DNA of 20,000 nt from an uncultured virus (IMG/VR IMGVR_UViG_3300030333_004050) (IMGVR_UViG_3300030333_004050); one strand, 5' to 3'. Numbered from the stretch's first letter, positions 2,251 to 20,000 are shown. Made by a program: numbers and translations. The notes: generated by a model not told the origin, from the letters alone.

Positions 2251-2453
2251 GCGAGTTTATTGACAAAGCAAAACAGATAATGGGAATGGATGATAACGAC
2301 ATAGAGGCGTTGAGGCTGTCAGTGACAGTAGCACTATTGGCGTCAGCATTGGGTCTGACTGAGGAACAGATAGACTTAGCATTAGAGCAACGAATGAAGG
2401 TCGAGATAAGCCAGGCAGGCGACCAACTCAAGGAACTATTGAAGGGAGAATGA
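2247..2453 (+). CDS. Hypothetical protein (68 aa)
   Basis: ATGA overlaps with the genes on both sides (translational coupling). Confidence 0.75.
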   Translation: MSEFIDKAKQIMGMDDNDIEALRLSVTVALLASALGLTEEQIDLALEQRMKVEISQAGDQLKELLKGE

Positions 2454-3613
2454 TGCGATTATCATTCGAGGACTTCGAGAGCCTTTGTGAAGAACTGGGC
2501 TTCACGACATATCCTCGTGCGATAGGCAACCCTCGTCAGCAATTCATTTACACACCCGAAGAAGCGTATGCGGGATTCAACGAGTGGAACGGCAACCATT
2601 CGTGCTTCATCAGCACACAAGGATATGACAATCTCGGCTACGACGCGCATGGAAAACAACTGCCTTCCGTCATACAGTATGGACTCACCTTCTTTGACTT
2701 CGACCACGACACTAAACCGGAGAACGCGTATGCGGACGCATGGAATCTATCTCGGTATCTTGAGGAACACGACATTTGTCATTGGGTTCAGTATTCCGGC
2801 TCGAAAGGGTATCACCTTTTCATCGTCCATAAACCAACACGATTCAAGTTCAATCACCAGGACGGTTCGGCAGATTCCCTACGGAGAATCGTCAATCAGA
2901 CCCAAACTGAACTCAAGATTTTGCTTAGTTCAAATACTCTCGATGTTCAAACCACTGGCGACCCTAAGCGTCTGTGTCGTTTTCCCTTTACTCGTCATGT
3001 CAACAGACACGGCGAAGTATCGCTTCGACATTGTATGCCGTTGACAAAAGAGATGCTTTCATCCGGCCACGATAATATCGTTGCTCAGTCTCACCGACCG
3101 CGAATGACTGGAGACTATTTAATAGGGCAAAAGAAACTCACTTTGAAAGAACTCATTGAAACTCTAAGTATATCCGTCAAGAGAGAAGATGTTGAACTCA
3201 GACCTGTCAATCGAACCGAACTCGAAATTGATGTTGATACTTCGTTAGGACAGTTCATTGCATCTCTCGAAGTCCGTTGTCCTGGCGTGGTCAATGAGTT
3301 GAAGACTCTCAATCCATATCATAAGGCGCGCGTCCACACAGCCATGTTCGCTAAGACGCTCGGTATTGACATTGACACCTTCGATTCTCTATGGGTGGAA
3401 CTGGCTAATGCACAAGGTTATGTTGATGTTCACAACACGGAATATAGAAGGAAGCAGTTGGAGTCTCTATTCTTCAACGACGCCTACCATACAAACGCGA
3501 ATTGCACTACGCTAAAGAGAGACAGATGTTGTATTGGAGAGGCTTGCCCGAAATACATTCACGAGTTCCCAAAGAGAAAGCGTATCATAAGAAAATGGAG
3601 TAAGAAAGCATGA
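2450..3613 (+). CDS. Archaeo-eukaryotic primase, PriS catalytic domain fused to a PriL-like Cys-rich C-terminal domain
   Basis: AEP motifs DFD (FFDFDHD), SGSKGYH and D..R..R.P. The C-terminal 'RCPGV...H.AR...Y...NCTTL....CC....CP' resembles the PriL Fe-S domain. Confidence 0.85.
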   Translation: MMRLSFEDFESLCEELGFTTYPRAIGNPRQQFIYTPEEAYAGFNEWNGNHSCFISTQGYDNLGYDAHGKQLPSVIQYGLTFFDFDHDTKPENAYADAWNLSRYLEEHDICHWVQYSGSKGYHLFIVHKPTRFKFNHQDGSADSLRRIVNQTQTELKILLSSNTLDVQTTGDPKRLCRFPFTRHVNRHGEVSLRHCMPLTKEMLSSGHDNIVAQSHRPRMTGDYLIGQKKLTLKELIETLSISVKREDVELRPVNRTELEIDVDTSLGQFIASLEVRCPGVVNELKTLNPYHKARVHTAMFAKTLGIDIDTFDSLWVELANAQGYVDVHNTEYRRKQLESLFFNDAYHTNANCTTLKRDRCCIGEACPKYIHEFPKRKRIIRKWSKKA

Positions 3614-4443
3614 CACCAGCAAATAAGACATTCAAGGCATCAGAAGTGTTAGAGGACGACGAGGCATTCGAGCAGGCCGCTACTACTGGCGGACTTGGCC
3701 GTAAATTGGCTCTCTTGCGTCTCCTAAGCGGCGCAAAGGTGGAAGTGGGCGAAATACCCACTGAACACAACGCGCGCTGTGAGTGGCTCGGTAGGGCTAT
3801 CATACAGGAACTCCTTGACCGCCAACAGAAGATAGACCACAGGGAACATTGGGTGGTTGCCGAGTATCTCAACAATCTCGGTTTTGAAATCGTCCACCTG
3901 GAAACAGGCAAGGGTGATGTCTCCAGCCGACGCGTCTCCGTCGAAAGAAAGGAAGATGACTTCCTACCGAGTTTGTTTGACGACAGAAGACTGAGACAGT
4001 TGGGGGCAATGAGAGAAGAAGCCGAGTTCTCATATCTCGTAGTCACGAAATCGTATAATGAAATCAAGGCTGATGTAGCAATGCGTGGAGTCAATGAGCG
4101 AGTTCTCATTGGGTATATTGCATCCTTATGCGCGGTTGGCTATCCACCAGTCTTCCTACCGGATAGACACGACGCGGCTGAGTTGATACGGAGAATCGTC
4201 GAGAAGGTTGAGGACGACGAACCTCGCATCTTCGTTCCACGACCGAAAGGTGCTTTGCCGAGAGATTATCGAAATGCAATAATCGAATCATTGCCGAAGG
4301 TTGGACCTAAGACGCGGCGTAAGTTGGTTGATGCTTTTCCTACCATTGCAGAACTATGCAATGCGACTCCCGAAGACCTCTCAGCGATAGAAGGAATCGG
4401 CAAAAAAACTGCAACTAAGATATTCGAGTGCCTGCATAGTTAA
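3610..4443 (+). CDS. ERCC4/XPF-family structure-specific nuclease with tandem HhH motifs
   Basis: GD-x8-ERK-x2-D motif (GDVSSRRVSVERKEDD), plus HhH motifs LPKVGPKT and IEGIGKKTA. Confidence 0.9.
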   Translation: MTPANKTFKASEVLEDDEAFEQAATTGGLGRKLALLRLLSGAKVEVGEIPTEHNARCEWLGRAIIQELLDRQQKIDHREHWVVAEYLNNLGFEIVHLETGKGDVSSRRVSVERKEDDFLPSLFDDRRLRQLGAMREEAEFSYLVVTKSYNEIKADVAMRGVNERVLIGYIASLCAVGYPPVFLPDRHDAAELIRRIVEKVEDDEPRIFVPRPKGALPRDYRNAIIESLPKVGPKTRRKLVDAFPTIAELCNATPEDLSAIEGIGKKTATKIFECLHS

Positions 4444-5054: not shown

Positions 5055-5362
5055 CATTCACAGTTGAAGAAGACGATGGTTCAGCAGTAGTTCTCGCCGT
5101 ATCATCTCATAATCTCAGTGATTCTATTCACATTATACAGGATGACGGCAGTTGGGAAGTCAAGCACTGCGACGAAACTTATGTCATGAATGATTATGCA
5201 AATGACATCAAGGTTGCGAGAGATTTTGCAGTCAAGATGCTAACAGGCATACCATTTAGGAAAATGGACGATATTTTAACCGACCCAAACGGCGAAAAAC
5301 CCTACATTAACTTCAAGGACTACGAGAGGGGGTCATCCTTCGATGTTTGGAGTGTTAAGTAA
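5045..5362 (+). CDS. Hypothetical protein (105 aa)
   Basis: Preceded by a GGAGTGA RBS; TAATG coupling to the fibre gene. Confidence 0.7.
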
Positions 5363-8300
5363 TGTCGAGGAAGAGAGACTTAAGGAAAGAAGCCGCTAAG
5401 CGTCTCGGCAGAAAAACCACTGATGATTCATTCGTAAATCGCGCTCGGCAGAAGGCTAACATATCCGACGAAGACGCTCTCGGACCTGCGCCACCACCTG
5501 CTTTACCAGTCGGCCCTCAAGGCCCAATCGGACCTGCACAGGACGGCTTGACTACTGTTAATTGGCGTGGTGTCTATTCTGATGACATAGAGTATCAGAT
5601 GGGCGACGCAGTATTCTATGAAGGGTCATCATACATACGCATACGAAAGGGAACTACCGTAGGCAAAGTTCCAACGAAGAAGCGATATTGGGATGTTCTC
5701 GCTCAACAAGGCGGCATCGGACCGAGTGGACCGGAAGGGTCGCAAGGTATTGCCGGACCGAGTGGACCTGCTGGTAGTGCTGGCCCTGCTGGAGATGACG
5801 GACCTGCTGGACCTACTGGACCTGCTGGGCCACCTGGCCCGACAGGAGCGGACTCAACAGTAGCCGGACCTGCTGGACCTGCTGGGCCTGCCGGACCTAC
5901 TGGACCTACTGGCCCTGCTGGCCCGACTGGAGATGACGGCCCTGCTGGGCCTGCCGGACCGCCTGGCCCAACTGGAAGCACTGGACCTCTCGGACCAACT
6001 GGTGATACTGGACCGACTGGACCAACTGGTTCTCAAGGACCACAGGGAGATACTGGACCTCAAGGCGACGCCGGACCTACTGGTCCAACTGGTCCTACTG
6101 GTCCTACCGGACCAACTGGACCTCAAGGAACTAAGGGTGAACTTAGCGGATTTCGCTATGAGTTTGACTCAGCGACGACTGGAACTGGAGTTGGTGCTGG
6201 TATTTTGCGTCTAAACAACGCAACTCCTTCATCGGCTACAAGTCTATTTTTCCACACAACTTCTGACGATTCGATTTCAGTTGCAGATTTGATGACACTT
6301 CTGAGTGGTGCAACTTCAACAAAGAAGGGTCATTTGATTCTCAAAACATTAGCCGGAGATATTCTGACTGCTACTATCTCGGACATTTCTCTTGCGTCGA
6401 GTATCTATACTGTCACAATTGCGGATGCTACTTCCACAGGAACATTCAGTGACGCCGAAGAAGTATATCTCGAACTCTATCGTATAGGAGACAAGGGAGA
6501 CACTGGAAGCACTGGGGCAACTGGCCCTACCGGACCAACTGGACCTGCTGGTTCAGATGGCTCAGATGGTGCAGATGGCTCAGATGGTGCAACAGGACCA
6601 ACTGGACCTACTGGCCCTACTGGCCCTCAAGGTGCTACTGGACCTACTGGACCTACTGGGCCTGCCGGAAGCGACGGCTCGGACGGGTCTGATGGTGCTA
6701 CTGGTCCGACTGGTGCTACTGGTCCTACTGGACCTACTGGAAGCACTGGTCCGACTGGACCTACCGGACCGGATGGTAATTTTGGTGGTGCTACATTTGA
6801 CTACACATTTAGCACGAACACAACTGACTCCGACCCAACACAGGGCAAACTCAAGTTCAACAACGGAACACTTGCGTCCGCGACTGAACTGTATATTGAC
6901 GACGAGGATGACAACGGAACTGACATTCAATCATTCTTGAGAACGATTGATGATTCGACCTCGACGATTAAAGGACACTTTAGAATAAGCAACCGCTTAG
7001 ATGCGAGCGACTTCAGACTTTTCACAATCAGTGCTGTCACTGAGGCAACTGGATATTTCAAAGTCTCATGTGCGTCAGTAAGTGGGTCGGCAACTTCATT
7101 CTCAGATGCGGAAGATGTAATCATAACATTCGCGCGCACTGGAGATAAGGGAGACACTGGTTCGACTGGCCCAACAGGACCAACTGGAGCGGATGGCCCG
7201 ACTGGCCCAACAGGACCAACTGGTCCGGCTGGTAGTGATGGTTCGGACGGCGCGGATGGTGCTACTGGCCCAACAGGGCCAACAGGGCCAACTGGCCCGA
7301 CTGGAAGCACTGGAGCGGCTGGGCCAACTGGCCCGACTGGTCCTACCGGACCTGCTGGGTCTGATGGAGACGATGGTGCAACAGGCCCGACTGGCCCTGC
7401 TGGTCCAACAGGCCCGACTGGGCCTACTGGAAGCACTGGACCTACTGGCCCGACTGGACCGGAAGGGTTGGTTTGGGAAGGAGCATGGTCAAGTTCCACT
7501 ACTTACCAGGTGGACGACGCTGTCACACACAACGGAACTTCTTACATTGCGACTGCTTCACATACTGACCAAGAACCACCGAATGCTTCGTATTGGAATG
7601 TCTTAGCGTCAAAAGGTGACACTGGTTCAACTGGTTCAACTGGGCCAACTGGTCCGGCCGGACCGACAGGGCCAACTGGGCCTGCTGGTTCAGATGGAGA
7701 CGACGGTGCTACTGGGCCGACAGGGCCAACTGGACCTACTGGGCCGACAGGGCCGAGTGGGTCTGACGGAGACGACGGTGCTACTGGCCCTACTGGTCCA
7801 ACAGGACCAACTGGAAGTGCTGGGCCAACTGGTGCTACTGGACCAACTGGAACTGCCGCCGGATTCGGAACTCCTACCGCAAGCACTGGACCAATAGGAG
7901 TCACAGCAAGCGGACCGGACACGGCCAAAGTATTCGCATTCACAATACCTGCCGGAGACACTGGACCTACTGGTCCGACAGGGCCGACAGGGCCAACTGG
8001 TCCGGCCGGAAGCGACGGAGATGATGGAGCGACTGGCCCAACTGGACCTACTGGCCCAACTGGACCTGCGGGTAGTGATGGTTCAGACGGAGCAACAGGC
8101 CCGACTGGGCCGACTGGTCCTACTGGTTCAACTGGAAGCACTGGTCCTACTGGTCCGACTGGACCTGTTGGGCCATCGGAAGGTGGAATATGGAGATTCG
8201 GAAATGCAACCGGAGCGTCTATTCCATCAAACGGTTATTTCAAAGTCAACAACGCCACATGGTCGAGTGGAACTCACATTTACATTAACAGGCTTGACAA

Positions 8301-10329
8301 GGATTCAGACGCATGGACTAACTGGTTCGAGCATTTACAATCTTTGACTTCATCCACTATGGGATTCATCAAAATTATAGGAACAGACTCCGGCACACCC
8401 GACCCATCCAATGAGGGTCATTTGTTTGAGATAACTGCGGTTGCAGATATGACGACTGGTTCTAATGTTGGTTATGACCTAACCGTGACTCCGGTATTCA
8501 ACAACTCAGAACCAACAAGCGGCGACGAGTGCTACATCTTCCTTTCATTCTCCGGTGACAAAGGTGACACTGGAGCAACTGGGCCGACTGGCCCTACTGG
8601 TAGCACTGGTCCTACTGGGCCTACTGGTCCAGCAGGCAGTGACGGTTCGGATGGAGCAACTGGACCGACAGGCCCGACAGGCCCGACTGGCCCTACTGGC
8701 CCTGCGGGGTCAGACGGTGATGATGGAGCAACTGGTCCTACTGGGCCTACTGGGCCTGCTGGCCCAACTGGGCCTACCGGACCTACGGGTGCGGCTGGAG
8801 ATGATGGGTCGGATGGTGCTACTGGCCCTACCGGACCGACTGGCCCTACTGGGCCTACCGGACCGACTGGGCCTGCCGCTTCACCTGCTGGTGATGGTAG
8901 CGAGGCTTCACCGTCCTACACATTCTCTTCTGACACCAACACTGGAATATATCGCAAGGGGTCAGACTCGATGGGATTCGTAGTAGGTGCGACCGAAGTA
9001 TTGTCAATGTCTTCGGCAGGCATCAATGTTGAAAACAACTACAAGTTGGGTATCTCAGATGGTGGAGCGTCTAATCCAACTCTCAGATTCAAAGATGACA
9101 CCAACACTGGTTTATTCAGACCTGCTGGTGACATTATCGGATTCACAACAAACGATACTGAAAGAATCAGAATCGGTGCATCGGGTCAAATTGGAATAGG
9201 CGGTGCGTCCTACGGAACTGCTGGTCAAGTGCTGGCTTCCGGTGGTGCATCGGCTTCCGTCGAGTGGGTTGATAATACGGCTGGACCGACTGGTCCAACT
9301 GGCCCTGCCGGACCTACTGGCCCGACCGGACCTACTGGGCCTACTGGTCCGACTGGCCCTGCTGGTTCAGATGGTGACGATGGAAGCGCGGGTGCTACTG
9401 GCCCTACTGGTCCGACTGGTCCAACTGGCCCAACAGGGCCAACTGGTTCAGCCGCCTCGCCTGCGGCGGACGGAAGTGCAGGGTCGCCTTCCTACACATT
9501 TACTTCAGATAGCAACACTGGTTTATTCAGAATCGGTGCAGACAACTTAGGAATCGCAACAGGCGGAACACAACGGGCCAACTTTGACTCAGATGGTAAA
9601 GTGCAAATTGGAGATTCGTCAGTCAATCCAGGCAGTGTGACAATAGGAAAACTGACAGTGTCGAGAGATGAAACGGAAGGCTCGGATGATGGCCCAACTC
9701 TAATGTTGGTTGATGGTGATAGTGACGCTAACAATGGACCGTTAATCAAGATGTATAGGAATACAGAAAGTCCAGCCGCCGACGATGCGTTGGGTGCAAT
9801 AGGATTCTCCGGTGAAGACTCCGGTGGGAGTGAAACAACATACGCACGAATACAAGCAGTGTCAAACGATGTCACAAACGGTTCGGAAGATGGTTCGCTT
9901 GAGTTTAGAATAATGGCGGCTGGAACACAAACAGATGTATTGACTATTGAGTCTGACCCCGACCACACAGCCCACCTAACTTTGTCTTCTGTGTCACAGG
10001 CTGGCGCGAAAGTAGGCCCAACTTCAACTGCTAATGATGGCTACTTGACCCTAATGACAGTGTCAACTTCAAAGTTCACAGGGATAACTGCGAGTGTGCA
10101 TATCACAGATTCAACCAACAATGAAGTTCAGACAGAAATGATAGTTGCACATTACGATGGGTCGGCCGTCAACTATACTACTTACGGACAGATATACGAT
10201 GGCGGCGCGGCGATAGGTGAATTACAAGCGGTATTATCGGGTGGCCGATGGACGATAACATTCCAAAACAAACAGGGTAGCACTGCGGACTTGACAGGCT
10301 CAATACACGCAGTGTTGCATCCAGCATGA
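5362..10329 (+). CDS. Collagen-like virion fibre/adhesin (1655 aa) with CBM5/12-like modules and repeated globular domains
   Basis: Multiple long Gly-X-Y (GPT/GPA/GSD) tracts. Two 'W.G.(Y/W)...Y..(G/D)DAV...G.SYI...P...YW.VLA' modules, three related ~115-125-aa domains ending GDKGDTG, and three 'G....P...F..D.NTG.(Y/F)R' repeats. Confidence 0.9.
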
Positions 10330-11073: not shown

Positions 11074-11382
11074 ATGGATAGACACGCTAAAGTATATGCT
11101 GGCCGAACTCTAATAGAGACTATCAGTTATGATGTTGACTGGTATCAAGTGAGGAACGAACGAAACCAATGTTTGTCTGAAACTGATATGTGGATGCTTA
11201 CCGACAGATATGACACCTTGACAGAATCTCAGAAGTCAGAACTGACTACTTACAGACAGGCACTTAGGGATTTACCGTCCGTCCACTATGACGAATCCGA
11301 CTTCGACATAGAAACTGGTTTGGGTTCAAAGGGAGCAAATGCGGCCGCAGATAATTTTCCAACGAAGCCGTCCTGGTTGTAA
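11074..11382 (+). CDS. Phage tail (fibre) assembly chaperone-like protein
   Basis: Signature 'W..VR.ERN..L.ETD...L.D...YRQALRDLP...FP.KP.W'; GGTGA RBS. Confidence 0.85.
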   Translation: MDRHAKVYAGRTLIETISYDVDWYQVRNERNQCLSETDMWMLTDRYDTLTESQKSELTTYRQALRDLPSVHYDESDFDIETGLGSKGANAAADNFPTKPSWL

Positions 11383-15092: not shown

Positions 15093-15120
15093 ACACTACT
15101 TCGGCGCGCGCGTCATTTTG

Positions 15121-15203
15121 CCCGTGTCGAGATGGGATGGGGGTATATAATCTTTTGGTTATAGGACTCTCAAACTATCAGAAACGAAAGGTTTATACCC
15201 GAA
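15121..15203. repeat. Divergent-promoter module R1
   Basis: CCCGTGTCGAGATGGGATGGGGGTATATAATCTTTTGGTTATA...ACTATC...CGAAAGGTTTATACCCGAA. Confidence 0.8.
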
Positions 15204-15260
15204 GGCTTCCCGTAAGGGGGTGGTGGGGCGGGCGCGTCTGTCCGCGCGGCATATCCCCGC

Positions 15261-15315
15261 AGTCCGCCCCGTGTCTGAGATGGGATGGGGGTCTATAAAC
15301 TTTCAGTTTAATATA
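15261..15315. repeat. Module R2 (leftward half conserved)
   Basis: AGTCCGCCCCGTGTCTGAGATGGGATGGGGGTCTATAAACTTTC. Confidence 0.75.
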
Positions 15316-15503
15316 GGTCAGATTCAATATAGCACCCTATACGCGCGCGCGTAGTAGTAAAGGGGGGTTTGGGCCTGGATTTTGGGGGTTTGGCTTGGTC
15401 CGTTTTTCGGGGGAGTATATAAAAGACAGACTATATTTGCCCAAACCTTTATACCAAATGCTCTCGTGGCTCAGATTACCCAACAAAGGGGGAGAACGAA
15501 AAC

Positions 15504-16219: not shown

Positions 16220-16241
16220 CATTCCGGCCTGGCGGCGCGGG

Positions 16242-16342
16242 AGTCCGCCCCGTGTCTAAGACGAGATGGCGGTATATAATCTTTAGGTTATATTACTCTT
16301 GACTATATACTGATGCAAACTATCTAAACATCTATAACCGAA
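16242..16342. repeat. Divergent-promoter module R3
   Basis: AGTCCGCCCCGTGTCTAAGACGAGATGGCGGTATATAATCTTTAGGTTATA...ACTATA...AAACATCTATAACCGAA. Confidence 0.8.
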
Positions 16343-16360
16343 ACACCCCCAGACCCCGCC

Positions 16361-16708
16361 ATGACTGGCGGGCGCGTCGAAGGGCGAGGGGCTATCCAGT
16401 CAGTAGGAGATGAAGAAGAAATGAAATGGATATTGGAAAAGAATGAGTATAACGGATGCTCAGTATTGAGGGGCGACAGACAGACCCTCAACTGGGCCTT
16501 GAATGGGTTGTGTGAGCCGTGTCATCACGCGCTACTCCATAACCCAGTATGGCGCACATTACCGCGCGCCTGTCATGCGAGTGGGTTCATCCACAAAATA
16601 ACAGACGAGAACATATACGAGTCGCTTGAAGCATGGACCTTCTGCAAGACCTGTTCAAAAATTGTTGAAGCCGACGAGCCAATCAACAACGACGAACCGG
16701 ACTTCTGA
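16361..16708 (+). CDS. Cys/His-rich hypothetical protein (start 16361 or 16421)
   Basis: CEPC...CKTC motifs. ATG 16361 is at leaderless distance; ATG 16421 has a GGAGATGA RBS. Confidence 0.7.
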   Translation: MTGGRVEGRGAIQSVGDEEEMKWILEKNEYNGCSVLRGDRQTLNWALNGLCEPCHHALLHNPVWRTLPRACHASGFIHKITDENIYESLEAWTFCKTCSKIVEADEPINNDEPDF

Positions 16709-16717
16709 ATAAACTAA

Positions 16718-16754
16718 GACGGCCCGTCGTCAGAATACTGGCGGCGGGTCTGTC
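16718..16754 (+). terminator. GC-rich 3' hairpin
   Basis: GGCCCGTCGTCAG-AATA-CTGGCGGCGGGTC, a 13-bp stem with G-U pairs. No T-tract. Confidence 0.45.
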
Positions 16755-16851
16755 AAAACAAACGAGAATATAGGCTTTTGAGGGTATATACAACACAACC
16801 TTCATAAGGGGGAACACATACGCACAACCAAGAACAAAGAGGCGAAACACC

Positions 16852-17178
16852 ATGTCAAACTACTGCACACGAAGAGAAGACGGACAAATCAGAAACCAAA
16901 TGACCGAGTGGGGAACAACCTTTGAGGCGCGACGCGACGGCGTCATCCCTCATTCCATGCCCCTCATCAGACTCGGAGAAATCGCACCAACTGGTCAACT
17001 TCAAGGAGAGGGTTGGGGTGCTGACAACAACATGACACTTGAGCAAATGCGCGACCTATTCGGAGAGGACCAACTCGTCTATCAAGGCGACCTTCTCGGC
17101 TACGCGCACCTTTGGGTCTTAGAGTGGTCATTCGACCGACTGGCGGTCAACTGGTTTAACGACGGGGTGGTCGCTTGA
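16852..17178 (+). CDS. Hypothetical protein (108 aa)
   Basis: ORF with GAGGCG upstream; the leader (AACAAAGAGGCGAAACACCATG) resembles that of ORF 15504. Confidence 0.7.
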   Translation: MSNYCTRREDGQIRNQMTEWGTTFEARRDGVIPHSMPLIRLGEIAPTGQLQGEGWGADNNMTLEQMRDLFGEDQLVYQGDLLGYAHLWVLEWSFDRLAVNWFNDGVVA

Positions 17179-17390
17179 GTCGAATGAACATTATCGCGGC
17201 TAAGGGCTACTTGACAGGCAGTCGAGACTTGTCGTGCGACTGCGGAAACAAAGACCTTCAAGTCTCAGTGTTTAGAGGCATCAACGACTTCTTGACTTTC
17301 AGTTGCCTAAAGTGCAACGACGCGAGGTCATATTCTCTTGAAGAGTTGCTTGAGCAAGGCCGAGAGGACGACGAGGGGGCGAGTGAATGA
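17175..17390 (+). CDS. Small zinc-ribbon protein
   Basis: CDCGN...CLKC; overlaps both neighbours. Confidence 0.65.
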   Translation: MSRMNIIAAKGYLTGSRDLSCDCGNKDLQVSVFRGINDFLTFSCLKCNDARSYSLEELLEQGREDDEGASE

Positions 17391-17578
17391 GTAAGCGCAT
17401 TGACCGTCAGCGTCTCGTGCGGGCCAGTGGTCGCTCTCGTGCGGGCAAGAGAGGAAAGACAATCATTCACCCAAAGTGCGGTTCAGCGTTCAAGGTGTAT
17501 CACTTCGCGTGGTCCGCCTGCGTCTGCAAGTGCGGCGAGGTTGTCGAGCGCGAGGACTTCTTGCATCTCGTCGGCTAA
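17387..17578 (+). CDS. Small basic zinc-finger protein (63 aa)
   Basis: HPKC...CVCKC; GAGTGA RBS and ATGA coupling. Confidence 0.65.
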   Translation: MSKRIDRQRLVRASGRSRAGKRGKTIIHPKCGSAFKVYHFAWSACVCKCGEVVEREDFLHLVG

Positions 17579-17747
17579 TTGTCACCAGTGACAAAACCGA
17601 CCCTTCACACTGGACGGACGCCGAAAGGCTAAGTGCTAAGGAGACGCGTCAGCGTTTGAGCAACGGCCAGGATTTCTCAAGGGGTAAAATATCGAGTGTC
17701 CGAGTCGGGGGGTTGGCGAGCCTGCGTTTGCCCCGCACCCCTGCTCA

Positions 17748-17827
17748 CCCATGTCGAGATGAGATGTAGGTATATAATCTTTTGGTTATATGATTCTCTA
17801 ACTATATACAACCAAATGTTTATAGGG
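17748..17827. repeat. Divergent-promoter module R4
   Basis: CCCATGTCGAGATGAGATGTAGGTATATAATCTTTTGGTTATA...ACTATA...CCAAATGTTTATAGGG, with ATG 17848 at leaderless distance. Confidence 0.8.
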
Positions 17828-17847
17828 GGGAATGCCTACGACCCACC

Positions 17848-18402
17848 ATGACAACCACCACCTGCGACTACTGCGACACCTGCGCGCCTTCCGGTGCGAC
17901 TGACATTAACCCAAGAGTAGCCAACCCAAACAACCCACCTGCGGACCATTCTCACGCCGTGAGGCTTAACAGAAACGGCCACGAGTGGTTCTTGTATGAC
18001 AACGGGTGCGACTACTGCGACGCTGACTGGGCGGCTCTAATCTTAATCAACGGAGACTCAATGCTTCATCAGTTTAGCGTCGTCACTGACGCGCTTAACG
18101 CATACGACATGGCGCGCTGGGGTTCGACCTTCGGACACCCTCGCGGGTCTGACGAGGTTAGAGCGTTGTTCAGTGAATACATGACAGGGTATGGAGTATG
18201 GGGAAACCGCACTGTCAATGTCTGCCCCGACTGCTTCGACGCTGACGCGCATACAGTTGACCGCGACACTCCAGTCTTAGGAGTCAACTGCATGGACGCT
18301 GAGGCGCGCGCGGCCATGTGCGAGAGGGCAACTGCTTTCGGAGAGGCTGACCGTTTGGTTGACGAGGCAAACCGCAACTGGAGACACCCTCGCACCATGT
18401 GA
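17848..18402 (+). CDS. Cys-rich hypothetical protein (184 aa)
   Basis: CDYCD twice, plus CPDC. Bounded by the R4 promoter and a terminator. Confidence 0.8.
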   Translation: MTTTTCDYCDTCAPSGATDINPRVANPNNPPADHSHAVRLNRNGHEWFLYDNGCDYCDADWAALILINGDSMLHQFSVVTDALNAYDMARWGSTFGHPRGSDEVRALFSEYMTGYGVWGNRTVNVCPDCFDADAHTVDRDTPVLGVNCMDAEARAAMCERATAFGEADRLVDEANRNWRHPRTM

Positions 18403-18425
18403 GACAACTCACTGCTTCCATAAAC

Positions 18426-18469
18426 GGGAGTCCGTCGCCAATCCTGGCGGCGGGCTTCCACCTTTTTTT
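18426..18469 (+). terminator. Hairpin plus T7 terminator
   Basis: GGGAGTCCGTCGCCA-ATCC-TGGCGGCGGGCTTCC, a 15-bp stem, followed by TTTTTTT at 18463-18469. Confidence 0.75.
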
Positions 18470-18493
18470 GGTCGAGGTTCGCCGCGCGCAGTG

Positions 18494-18584
18494 CGTCCAC
18501 CCCGCTCTTGAGATGGGATGTAGGTATATAAACTTTCGCTTATATGATACTCAGACTATCATAACCGAAACCTTTATACCCGAA
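18494..18584. repeat. Divergent-promoter module R5
   Basis: CCCCGCTCTTGAGATGGGATGTAGGTATATAAACTTTCGCTTATA...ACTATC...CGAAACCTTTATACCCGAA. Confidence 0.8.
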
Positions 18585-18599
18585 CCCCTACTCCGTTAA

Positions 18600-19120
18600 T
18601 TTGTAGTGAAGGCGGGCGTCCTTAGTGACCCTGCTGGATTAGAGCGAGTCACCTTCGCCGCGCGGAACTTAGTAAGTATGCAAACCGAACGGTGCGTTAA
18701 TGCGGCGACCCTGTCTCGTTCTGAGTGTTGGTTTGGGAGATGTAATTCGGCCGCCCTTCGGGGCTGTGGCGTCTTCTCCTTAACAATCCGCGTTGCCTAA
18801 CCAGCGCGCGGGGGGCTTTCCCAACTGGTGAGAGAGGATGTGTGGTTCGCCATGCGCCAACGAAGGAGACGGCTGTGGTGGCTTATGGACTGGAACTAAC
18901 ACGCTACATCTGAGACTTGGGTGGTTTTGTAGCCTGTGATATACAACGACCTATCATGCGGGGGAAATAGGCAATCCCCGCGCCCATTTCTCAACCTATT
19001 CCATCGGGGATAGGGGGGAGACAATAATCGACCTGTAATCCCATAGTGGGGCGCGCTCGGCCGAGCGAATAATAGACCTGTAATCCTATGGTGGGGCAGT
19101 CTTCTTCCCTATTCCCATCT
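18600..19120 (+). ncRNA. Candidate large structured non-coding RNA of unknown family
   Basis: Starts about 21 nt after the R5 TATA box and has no credible ORF. Serial stems with many G-U pairs on the + strand and two UUCG loops. Confidence 0.55.
19023..19097 (+). repeat. Two 30-bp direct repeats flanking a perfect 14-bp palindrome
   Basis: AATAATCGACCTGTAATCCCATAGTGGGGC and AATAATAGACCTGTAATCCTATGGTGGGGC (27/30 identical). CGCTCGGCCGAGCG at 19054-19067. Confidence 0.85.
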
Positions 19121-19416
19121 TACTATATACAACTACTATTTACTGTTGATTAGAATTAATGATGAAGATAGAGAGAGCATTGGGGCATACACACAACAGG
19201 GGGTAAAGTGTGTGTGTGTGCTATGGTCCTTCCAGGTTGCATCATTCTTTTCTTTGATTAAATACGGAGTGGCGTAGCCTATCGGTTTTGCACCTGGCTT
19301 AATGATGGGTTTTACTTACACCAAAAAATCAACGAACATATAGTCTGAAAAGTATGACTGCCGATTTTAGAAAAGAAGCCTTCATCATTGTTTTTGATAG
19401 TTATATGAAGTTAATG

Positions 19417-19444
19417 TTATATACCCTAACCCAGTGCGAGGGGT
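19417..19444 (+). promoter_or_regulatory. TATA box for a leaderless operon
   Basis: TTATATA at 19417-19423, 21 nt before ATG 19445, the same spacing as at 667/696. Confidence 0.7.
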
Positions 19445-19612
19445 ATGGCCGGAAGAATACCGCACCATCAATACAACCGAATACGCAACCGCTACTTGAC
19501 CCGACTGTCAACCTCTCCGTATGGACCAATCACTGAGAGTGAGGACACTAAGGTTCAACTAATCAACGCGCTGACATACATAGCCGTTAGAGAAAAACTG
19601 GTGGTGGAGTGA
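19445..19612 (+). CDS. Hypothetical protein (55 aa, not in ORF track)
   Basis: MAGRIPHHQYNRIRNRYLTRLSTSPYGPITESEDTKVQLINALTYIAVREKLVVE. Leaderless start; ends in a GGTGGAGTGAATG junction. Confidence 0.65.
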   Translation: MAGRIPHHQYNRIRNRYLTRLSTSPYGPITESEDTKVQLINALTYIAVREKLVVE

Positions 19613-19741
19613 ATGAGTTGGTGCTATCGGTGCAACGCACCCGCGACGAGCGCGTGTATATTGTATAACATTCATAACGGGGTTCAATATGAGGCAGGCG
19701 GTGGGCCTGTGTCTATTACAGAAATAAGGACGGTGGAGTGA
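19613..19741 (+). CDS. Hypothetical protein (42 aa, not in ORF track)
   Basis: MSWCYRCNAPATSACILYNIHNGVQYEAGGGPVSITEIRTVE. Identical GGTGGAGTGAATG junctions at both ends. Confidence 0.55.
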   Translation: MSWCYRCNAPATSACILYNIHNGVQYEAGGGPVSITEIRTVE

Positions 19742-20000
19742 ATGCAACTGTTCTATCTGACTGAGAATCACAAAATGAACGCGGCCGCGCATTGCGACCC
19801 TCATGTCGTGAAAATGCCTATCGAGGCTATGCAGTTAGCGGTGACGGCAGTCTATCACGCAACAGACCCACTCACGCCCGCGAAGCATGAGAAGTATGGG
19901 TTTGGCGTCAGACGACGAAAGACCGGACCGAATCGCAATCTCAAGTCTGAGTTTATTCACATACCACTCAACAAGGACGGCGAGCCAATGAAGCCGACAC
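19742..20000 (+). CDS. Pyrimidine-dimer DNA glycosylase (DenV/endonuclease V-like family), 3'-truncated
   Basis: MQLFYL...AAAHCDPHVVKMPIEAMQL..TA...MKPT matches the 'MNIF.L...A..HCDKHVVKM..E.AQLL.TA...YK.TH' family pattern. Confidence 0.75.
   Translation, partial: MQLFYLTENHKMNAAAHCDPHVVKMPIEAMQLAVTAVYHATDPLTPAKHEKYGFGVRRRKTGPNRNLKSEFIHIPLNKDGEPMKPT

Follow-up and report, generated by a model that had tools for sequence, protein, structure and literature searches.

What does a promoter transcribe when no gene begins where one would be expected? This question is raised by positions 18600-19120 of a 20,000-nucleotide (nt) stretch of DNA from an uncultured virus (IMG/VR IMGVR_UViG_3300030333_004050). 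The whole stretch is called the window here, and coordinates are whole-window positions unless a contig is named. A first-pass annotation, made from the sequence alone, had proposed that an archaeal-type promoter in this region drives a highly structured RNA of about 520 nt that lacks an open reading frame (ORF) and may belong to an undescribed class of large viral noncoding RNA (ncRNA). The follow-up analysis described here favors, with a probability of roughly 60%, a more limited version of this idea: the + strand from 18602/18603 to about 18943-18950 would be a stand-alone gene for an accessory ncRNA of about 330-350 nt, for which we infer a stable decoy or scaffold role. The rest of the 520-nt span would then be a separate, conserved DNA segment.

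An archaeal-type promoter that lacks its start codon

The element at the center of the question is CGAAACCTTTATAC (18566-18579, + strand), a B recognition element (BRE) followed by a TATA hexamer at 18573. Along the + strand of the window, the combination of an A-rich stretch and a TATA hexamer is present at eight sites, and at five of these (667, 1119, 16331, 17819, and 19417) an ATG lies 21-24 nt after the hexamer. The same spacing is seen at 0 of 6 sites on the - strand (background rate 0.079, binomial P 1.4e-4). In G001, the nearest complete relative (an IMG/VR record of 80.7 kb), the spacing occurs at 4 of 9 sites on the coding strand and at 0 of 3 on the opposite strand. A fixed distance of ~23 nt between TATA and a leaderless start is expected of archaeal promoters that use TBP and TFB, and the site at 18566-18579 has the A-rich BRE and the TATA box of this type. 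In addition, a scan for sigma-70-like sites found none in 18500-18600. By analogy with the spacing of the leaderless genes, transcription is predicted to start at 18602-18603. However, although site 18573 has the same BRE/TATA, there is no ATG at the leaderless position, and the next ATG is at 18679. In this respect, the original description of a leaderless-type promoter without its start codon was correct.

Upstream, the unit is bounded by the end of a gene for a 184-amino-acid (aa) protein (17848-18402, + strand). A scan for terminator-like sites identified a hairpin of 15 pairs followed by a run of seven Ts (18426-18469), which separates this gene from the RNA unit. This hairpin is also what is recognized by the Rfam model ctRNA_pGA1 at 18414-18472, a sub-threshold match (29.5 bits versus a cut-off of 45). 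The BRE/TATA itself is the final element of a cassette of ~75 nt (18510-18584, + strand) with the order GAGATGGGATG..GGTATATAA..CTTT..TTATATGA..ACTAT..BRE/TATA. Other copies of the cassette are found at 15129-15203, 15276-15304, about 16250-16340, and 17756-17824, and it is present several times in contigs L001 (part of the G001 sequence), L004, and L008 as well.

Several other features of these cassettes can be mentioned. With their immediate surroundings (15109-15500, 16237-16340, 17736-17830, and 18490-18584; ~75-90 nt each), the five copies each follow a GC-rich hairpin and bear up to three TATA-like boxes apiece, with a tandem trio at 15100-15500. The motif GGCGGGCG recurs right after predicted starts, at 15221, 16361, and 18602. 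A second BRE/TATA (TATA at 15192) also lacks a leaderless ATG; a G-rich hairpin lies between it and the next cassette, and this interval (15192-15275) may be another short noncoding unit or an attenuator.

No frame is kept among strains

Within the gap between annotated genes (18403-19444), no frame exceeds 78 codons, and the only longer start-to-stop frame near the promoter begins with GTG and extends from 18606 to 18800 (64 aa). Conservation of this frame at the codon level would argue against an ncRNA, and related strains provide the comparison. L003, a metagenome contig that is ~93% identical to the window across 16287-20000, differs by insertions and deletions of +5, +18, +29, -3, -8, and -3 nt, and its GTG frame ends after 24 codons. 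In the X18/X19 strain, TTA is changed to TGA at 18669-18671 (18670 T>G), ending the frame after 21 codons, and a T is inserted after 18688. The change 18730 G>A converts TGG to TAG at 18729-18731 in both the X18/X19 strain and L003. Finally, in the X20 strain TGT becomes TGA at 18765-18767 (18767 T>A), and the frame ends after 53 codons. Thus, frameshifts or nonsense changes are found in three strains, and the 12 changed sites within the frame fall at codon positions 1, 2, and 3 in the numbers 5, 2, and 5, with no codon periodicity.

Protein searches with the GTG-frame ORF gave a similar picture. There was no match to a Pfam or PHROG family and no protein sharing three 5-residue words in a collection of 5.8 billion protein clusters. 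An exhaustive phmmer search returned two long repetitive proteins only, one of them a Cys-rich protein whose score sums nine weak stretches; because both matches fall in the part of the ORF that other strains truncate, they are regarded as spurious. The composition of the RNA unit, with a G+U-rich + strand, is also unlike that of the A-rich coding strand. As far as the strain sequences indicate, then, no frame downstream of the promoter is conserved, and the mark of a protein-coding region, a frame kept among relatives, is absent.

A leaderless mRNA for a micropeptide has nevertheless been considered. In this case, translation would begin at GTG 18606, the first 15-21 residues would be common to all strains, and the remaining RNA would serve as a 3' untranslated region (UTR). 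The GTG lies 3-4 nt past the predicted start, which is where the leaderless genes have their ATG, and each of the changes at 18635, 18644, and 18659 falls at a third codon position and is synonymous. Of the five changes that precede the stop in the X20 strain, four are synonymous as well. However, frames of 24 (L003), 21 (X18/X19), and 53 (X20) codons against 64 in the window, the lack of a third-position excess among the changed sites, and the lack of a homologue other than the two repetitive proteins do not fit such a gene, and the contigs from RNA libraries discussed below extend more than 140 nt beyond the stop. A micropeptide mRNA is thus judged improbable, with a peptide of up to 21 residues as a residual possibility.

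Contigs from RNA libraries point to a shorter unit

Evidence for a transcript comes from sequencing runs. Twenty of the 24 runs listed contain some part of 18400-19500; 17 of these are DNA libraries (nine studies) and three are RNA libraries (two studies). Contigs of all three RNA runs and of one DNA run, X9, were compared with 18200-19800. The RNA libraries yielded five contigs, every one of which lies inside 18614-18943 with no loose end. One contig, of 331 nt, is complete within this interval and matches end to end with eight differences and one gap. Two variants cover 18614-18720, another contig covers 18691-18852, and the contig from the second study covers 18644-18900 with 13 differences and four gaps. 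Together, they represent at least three strain variants that are 95-99% identical to the window. Three contigs from one sample start at 18614, 12 nt past the predicted start. At the other end, the last base in any RNA contig is 18943, and a run of four Ts is present at 18925-18928. None of the RNA contigs lies on 18200-18613 or 18944-19800, which is not evidence that RNA is absent there, and their depths (101, 24-41, and 4) are unsuitable for ranking genes.

Since all of the RNA-library contigs lie inside 18614-18943, the RNA unit is taken to be about 330-350 nt (18602-18950, + strand; the 5' end comes from the promoter and the 3' end is approximate), not 520 nt. Consequently, the 520-nt span originally proposed divides into an RNA gene of ~340 nt and a separate conserved DNA segment. 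The promoter, the lack of an ORF, and the presence of the sequence in RNA libraries of two studies, which indicates transcription, all stand, while the length does not.

Candidate basal helices and variable segments

The first-pass annotation had listed a nearly continuous series of helices, and all are present at about the positions given for them: GTGAC/GTCAC, CGCCGCG/TGCGGCG, GCCC-UUCG-GGGC (18753-18764), ACCAG/CTGGT, TGG-UUCG-CCA, GCTACA/TGTAGC, GTGATA/TATCAT, GCGGGG/CCCCGC, and the pairing of 19006-19022 with 19099-19116. Folding energies were compared with those of dinucleotide shuffles. For 18600-19120, the + strand gives -198.9 kcal/mol versus -188.5 +/- 6.6 for the shuffles (z -1.57), with 7 of 100 shuffles as good, and the - strand gives z +1.17, with 86 of 100 as good; the + strand folds better than the - strand because it is G+U-rich. 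The values are z -0.70 for 18602-18950 (29 of 100 shuffles as good), z -0.82 for 18960-19125 (41 of 200), and z -1.68 for the L003 homologue (5 of 100). Thus, for the window, the description "highly structured" does not go beyond chance (z from -0.7 to -1.6).

What does emerge is a small set of helices upon which the minimum free energy (MFE) and consensus folds agree, designated P1, P2, and P3, all on the + strand. P1 is a hairpin at 18611-18635 within a conserved 5' module. P2 is an arm (18639-18724) whose base helix pairs 18639-18648 with 18715-18724 around a variable segment, V1. P3 is a longer arm (18725-18902) whose base helix pairs 18725-18734 with 18893-18902 around two other variable segments, V2 and V3. 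Five single changes in P1-P3, from three variants, all convert G-U pairs to G-C or A-U pairs: 18635 U>C in L003 (G-U to G-C) in P1, 18644 G>A and 18723 G>A (G-U to A-U) in P2, and 18730 G>A (G-U to A-U) and 18891 U>C (U-G to C-G) in P3. On the - strand, each change would leave one allele with an A-C mismatch, so these changes favor the + strand. L003 retains the P2 helix even though its V1 insert is a different sequence, longer by 5 and 18 nt. The support is confined to the P1-P3 basal helices and consists solely of these five one-sided changes; the inner and distal pairing of the P3 arm is not supported. RNAalifold reported four two-sided changes and no broken pairs in a structure that is biased to compatible pairs and draws upon one full homologue (L003) plus variant tables.

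At the 3' end, alternative folds contain either a GCUACA...UGUAGC hairpin with a U4 run (18903-18933, + strand) or a closing helix that pairs 18903-18908 with 18602-18607. Three changes in the X9 DNA variant (18927 T>A, a deletion at 18929, and 18931 A>T) disturb the hairpin, so that both the hairpin and the closing helix are no more than candidate forms.

The variable segments, all on the + strand, are V1 (18649-18713, inside P2), V2 (18747-18770, inside P3, with a 29-nt insertion after 18745 in L003), and V3 (18813-18861, inside P3). From the sequence comparison, V1-V3 look replaced rather than mutated between strains that are otherwise nearly identical. In both strains in which V1 and V3 can be read, these segments share a motif that is specific to the strain: the window has TTCGCC..GCGC, and L003 has GAGCCAAAC. 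This would fit two arms that recognize one partner. In the X9 DNA contig, positions 18600-18631 are unchanged and are joined by nine further matching letters, while both flanks differ, which suggests that the 5' end is modular and is used in more than one context. A mini-CRISPR array or guide-like RNA was also considered for the variable segments and rejected: no repeat is common to the sequences that flank V1 and V3, and complementarity to the window or to G001 does not exceed 12 nt.

An RNA limited to one sub-lineage

Is this RNA a member of a known family, or a cellular RNA that the virus has captured? Rfam 15, whose families include RNase P, SRP, tmRNA, 6S, introns, GOLLD, ROOL, and pRNA, gives no match in the whole window at the gathering cut-off; at E<=10, 18300-19500 contains two sub-threshold matches only, both outside 18602-18950, and at E<=1 there is none in L003, L100, or L101. 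ARAGORN finds no tRNA or transfer-messenger RNA (tmRNA) gene in the window. The first-pass annotation had not recognized the RNA as a tRNA, RNase P, SRP, tmRNA, or intron, which is borne out, and the RNA is new as a family.

Searches for relatives were similarly negative. Using blastn with the whole 18600-19120 element, there is no real match in G001. The RNA is found by BLAST in 0 of 30 related IMG/VR records (five complete), and its 5' motif, with three mismatches allowed, in 0 of 31. Exact-pattern scans of the viral collection with the direct-repeat segment described below and with the 5' module gave no hits, blastn against 50,697 phage records gave no match, and relatives of the downstream gene include none among viral contigs. 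The carriers are thus members of a single virus sub-lineage (the window, L002, L003, and the run contigs), a distribution that does not amount to the RNA "class" originally suggested. Within this sub-lineage, L003 and the window are nearly identical up to 18649, diverge heavily over 18650-18870, and differ by one base across 18901-19450.

If the RNA-library contigs had instead come from a host gene of which the virus carries a copy, they might be expected to differ somewhat from the window, and they are indeed 95-99%, not 100%, identical. However, the differences fall in the variable segments that also distinguish the viral contig L003. No Rfam family matches, BLAST found the RNA in neither of two metagenome-assembled genomes (MAGs) that have a related terminase, and among 301 genomes of the order to which the archaeal MAG with a related terminase belongs, three contain BLAST matches, all of 22-27 nt and at chance level. 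A captured or shared cellular RNA is accordingly considered very improbable.

At the matching place, G001 has small genes along with a zeta-toxin-like cassette in the opposite orientation, and a second relative, G002, has a gap. This succession of contents indicates a fast-changing accessory slot. The G001 cassette (L001 6299-7274, - strand) has two genes, one of them for a zeta-toxin-like kinase (Pfam Zeta_toxin, E 1.6e-15), and it looks like an accessory cassette. In G002 (represented by L101, reverse strand about 2735-3930), an ORF-free gap of ~1.2 kb lies before a phrog_624-type gene. It contains the promoter-like ACCTTTAAGTA and two copies of CUCUGAGGCC, has a fold z of -0.93 and no Rfam match, and might encode an unrelated RNA that occupies this slot. 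Elsewhere in the comparison with L003, patches of heavy divergence occur at 16301-16450 and 19451-19480 and, together with 18650-18870, form a mosaic pattern; the first of these covers the N-terminus of an ORF at 16361-16708, directly 3' of a promoter cassette.

The narrow distribution, along with the repeated cassette, raises the question of whether the RNA is a functionless by-product. In this model, a mobile copy of the cassette would simply fire into a spacer, and the apparent scaffold would be sequence that was recently shared. In keeping with this, the cassette is repeated five times, the copy with TATA 15192 likewise lacks an ATG, part of a degenerate motif resembling the cassette (ATATACAAC) is found again at 18939-18950 and at 19125-19136, the RNA does not fold better than chance would give, and it is limited to one sub-lineage. 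On the other hand, a by-product would not readily explain why at least three strain variants of the RNA are found among contigs of RNA libraries from two studies, why its conserved 5' module recurs in another context in the X9 DNA contig, or why none of the five changes in the basal helices breaks a pair. A by-product is judged unlikely.

A proposed stand-alone accessory RNA

Taken together, these results have led to the following working model for the stand-alone accessory RNA. The 184-aa gene would terminate at its hairpin and T7 run, and the cassette BRE/TATA would then start the RNA at 18602-18603. A conserved scaffold, consisting of P1 and the base helices of P2 and P3, would carry V1-V3, which are swapped or rewritten between otherwise nearly identical strains, and the RNA would occupy the fast-changing accessory slot of one sub-lineage. 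Once made, it might accumulate stably and, in the infected cell, act as a decoy or scaffold by binding a protein or nucleic acid of the host or the virus, in which case the variable arms would be the parts under diversifying pressure.

Several considerations weigh against this model. First, the contigs carry no information on strand, true ends, or level, so that the promoter and the G-U argument are the basis for assigning the + strand and the 5' end; moreover, two of the three RNA runs represent one sample, and the contig of the third has a depth of only 4. Second, the folding energy of the RNA (z -0.70) is no better than that of shuffles, and a defined structure is unproven. In the X20 strain, nine of the 13 changed sites are paired in the MFE structure of the window, and seven of these nine break the pair (distal P3), while the absence of broken pairs in RNAalifold carries little weight, given that the program chooses compatible pairs by construction. 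Third, to the synonymous X20 changes noted above can be added two within the first 15 codons of the GTG frame, both of which also keep base pairs. Fourth, there is no homologue outside one sub-lineage, and conservation at this range says little about function. Fifth, the archaeal host is itself inferred: one of the three organism-named bins with a related terminase is a Legionellales MAG, and the nearest terminases of cultured phages are from Firmicutes phages, all at <60% identity. Finally, the role as decoy or scaffold is put forward only as the most probable one.

A bolder version would make this the first abundant virus-encoded ncRNA family for a virus of uncultured marine Euryarchaeota, as a stable RNA whose arms are traded as cassettes between near-identical strains on a conserved three-helix scaffold and which serves as decoy or guide in an arms race with host defenses or competing viruses. 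This version is tentative and, on balance, doubtful.

The 3' segment and a possible origin

What, then, is the remainder of the 520-nt span? The segment 18951-19120 contains a GC hairpin (GCGGGG/CCCCGC), direct repeats, a palindrome, and the long pairing of 19006-19022 with 19099-19116. A repeat scan located two 35-nt direct repeats that are 86% alike (19018-19052 and 19063-19097, 45 nt apart), and they flank a perfect 14-nt palindrome, CGCTCGGCCGAGCG (19054-19067). Each repeat finishes in a small CCCA/UGGG hairpin. The segment is 100% identical in L003 and is probably a DNA-level or separate element, apart from the RNA.

Immediately beyond lies what will be called the landmark (19117-19300): a CT-rich tract, an AT-rich tract, a (CA)n/(TG)n hairpin (19185-19221), and AAATACGGA at 19262. 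The landmark is 75% identical to sequences in L001 and L004, and its hairpin is also present in G002 and G013; a pattern scan for the hairpin found the G001 record only in the viral collection and nothing in genome contigs. Overall, the landmark is seen in at least four lineages (window 19117-19300, L001 7480-7660, L100 2190-2265, and L101 842-990 on the - strand). The AT-rich tract contains ACTA repeats and the hairpin has a G5 loop; AAATACGGA is found in both the window and G001, and in both the landmark lies upstream of a phrog_624-type gene. It may be an origin of replication or a regulatory (master) site.

An origin here would offer another explanation for the RNA. Both ColE1 RNA II and the transcripts from the mitochondrial light-strand promoter (LSP) prime replication through an RNA-DNA hybrid. 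Similarly, a transcript from 18602 could prime or activate replication at 18951-19300, and the 330-nt RNA would be its released 5' part. The predicted start is ~515 nt upstream of the AT-rich tract (19117-19170). The + strand contains runs of four to six Gs at 18958-18964, 19007-19020, 19047-19052, and 19092-19097, the region 18901-19450 is one base different from L003, the landmark is common to G001, G002, and G013, the palindrome and the direct repeats around it look like binding sites, and the virus encodes a prim-pol. As in the RNA II system, a promoter stands ~0.5 kb before an invariant segment that is rich in AT and contains repeats, and the nontemplate strand has G runs. However, unlike the case of RNA II, no antisense partner is seen, the arrangement is not kept in G001, where the genes beside the landmark point away and there is no such transcript unit, and the origin is only postulated: GC skew is uninformative on this point in both the window and G001. 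Furthermore, a primer function leaves the hypervariable segments unexplained. An origin-proximal transcript is thus unlikely as the explanation of the locus.

The question of whether 18600-19120 could lie near a genome end was also addressed. The terminal repeats of G012 and G013 are only 123 and 91 nt, respectively, and are read as assembly overlap of circular or permuted genomes. Consequently, no genome terminus can be placed near this region.

Comparison with other RNAs

Other viruses and their hosts provide several systems with which the proposed accessory RNA can be compared. GOLLD and ROOL are large, ORF-free ncRNAs of bacteria and phages, roughly 600-800 nt long, whose function was long unknown. 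The RNA of the window is likewise virus-carried, ORF-free, and large for an ncRNA; it differs in its length (~340 nt), the lack of an Rfam match, its archaeal-type promoter, its restriction to one sub-lineage, and the lack of a covariation-supported fold. The packaging RNA (pRNA) of phage phi29 is abundant and promoter-driven, and its sequence changes fast between relatives while a helical scaffold stays. Here, too, the RNA is encoded by a tailed virus, driven by a promoter, and fast-changing in sequence upon a helical scaffold. However, it is twice the size of pRNA, has no Rfam match, and shows no evident link to a portal or to packaging, and its absence from 6 of 6 complete related genomes would be unexpected for a packaging part. 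The adenovirus VA RNA and the EBERs of Epstein-Barr virus (EBV) are short and highly expressed, have their own promoters, and bind host proteins. The resemblance to these RNAs is one of logic only, given the different domain of life and the lack of a known partner for the window RNA.

The viruses of the abundant uncultured marine Euryarchaeota are known from assemblies only. For stable ncRNAs from such viruses, no report was found in a literature search that was not exhaustive. Tan1 is described as an abundant 229-nt RNA of unknown function from marine group II Euryarchaeota, seen in marine metatranscriptomes (PMC5069720). By this description, the RNA of the window is similar in occurring in marine metatranscriptomes and in having the same probable host group; unlike Tan1, which is host-encoded and shorter, it has no real match in 301 archaeal genomes.

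An RNA that has its own archaeal promoter and is assembled from RNA libraries could mark active infection in ocean metatranscriptomes and is a compact subject for studies of RNA structure and binding. It also hints that archaeal viruses use RNAs besides proteins against their hosts, as phages and eukaryotic viruses do. In addition, the repeated cassette and the adjoining hairpin landmark provide handles on gene regulation and genome organization in this virus family.

The virus and its probable host

The virus is a marine tailed virus of approximately 80 kb with promoters of the archaeal TBP/TFB type. G001, whose sequence includes L001, L010, and L013, encodes an HK97-type capsid, a portal, a prohead protease, a terminase, and a tape-measure protein, and relatives of the terminase form more than 80 clusters on contigs of 75-86 kb. 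Three organism-named bins have a related terminase: besides the Legionellales MAG, there are two that are euryarchaeal, "MAG Euryarchaeota archaeon" (1 of the 24 listed cluster members) and "Methanobacteriota archaeon." An archaeal host is plausible, with the promoter architecture as the stronger argument and the bins as weak evidence; to this extent, the earlier assignment to an archaeal virus has held up as plausible. A tblastn search with the terminase found 352 phage records, all at <60% identity, mostly from Firmicutes hosts plus two Haloarcula viruses. The prim-pol has no match among phages, and relatives of the structural proteins gave no host, as the Atlas listing contains viral clusters only. 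Magrovirus genomes are described as ~100 kb in size and as encoding PolB and MCM (PMC5434244); neither protein has a Pfam match among the 30 G001 proteins scanned.

Every credible gene in the window is on the + strand. Pfam and PHROG scans of the window proteins identified the prim-pol (2450-3613), and the gene content also includes a helix-hairpin-helix protein, two methyltransferases, and many small ORFs without families. A tail fiber of 1655 aa (5362-10329, + strand) has 14 collagen-repeat stretches and a CBM_5_12 carbohydrate-binding module, and a gene for a tail-fiber assembly chaperone lies 3' of it (11074-11382, + strand). The 184-aa gene that precedes the RNA unit is missing from 5 of 5 complete related genomes searched, and its product, which contains repeated CDxCD and CPDC motifs, has only five relatives in the 5.8-billion-cluster protein collection; in L005-L007, which carry distant relatives of this gene, the downstream context differs from that of the window. 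Finally, G001 encodes a TET-associated glycosyltransferase (L013 2855-3772) and a 2OG-Fe(II) oxygenase (L010 8915-9481), which suggests hypermodified DNA in this virus family.

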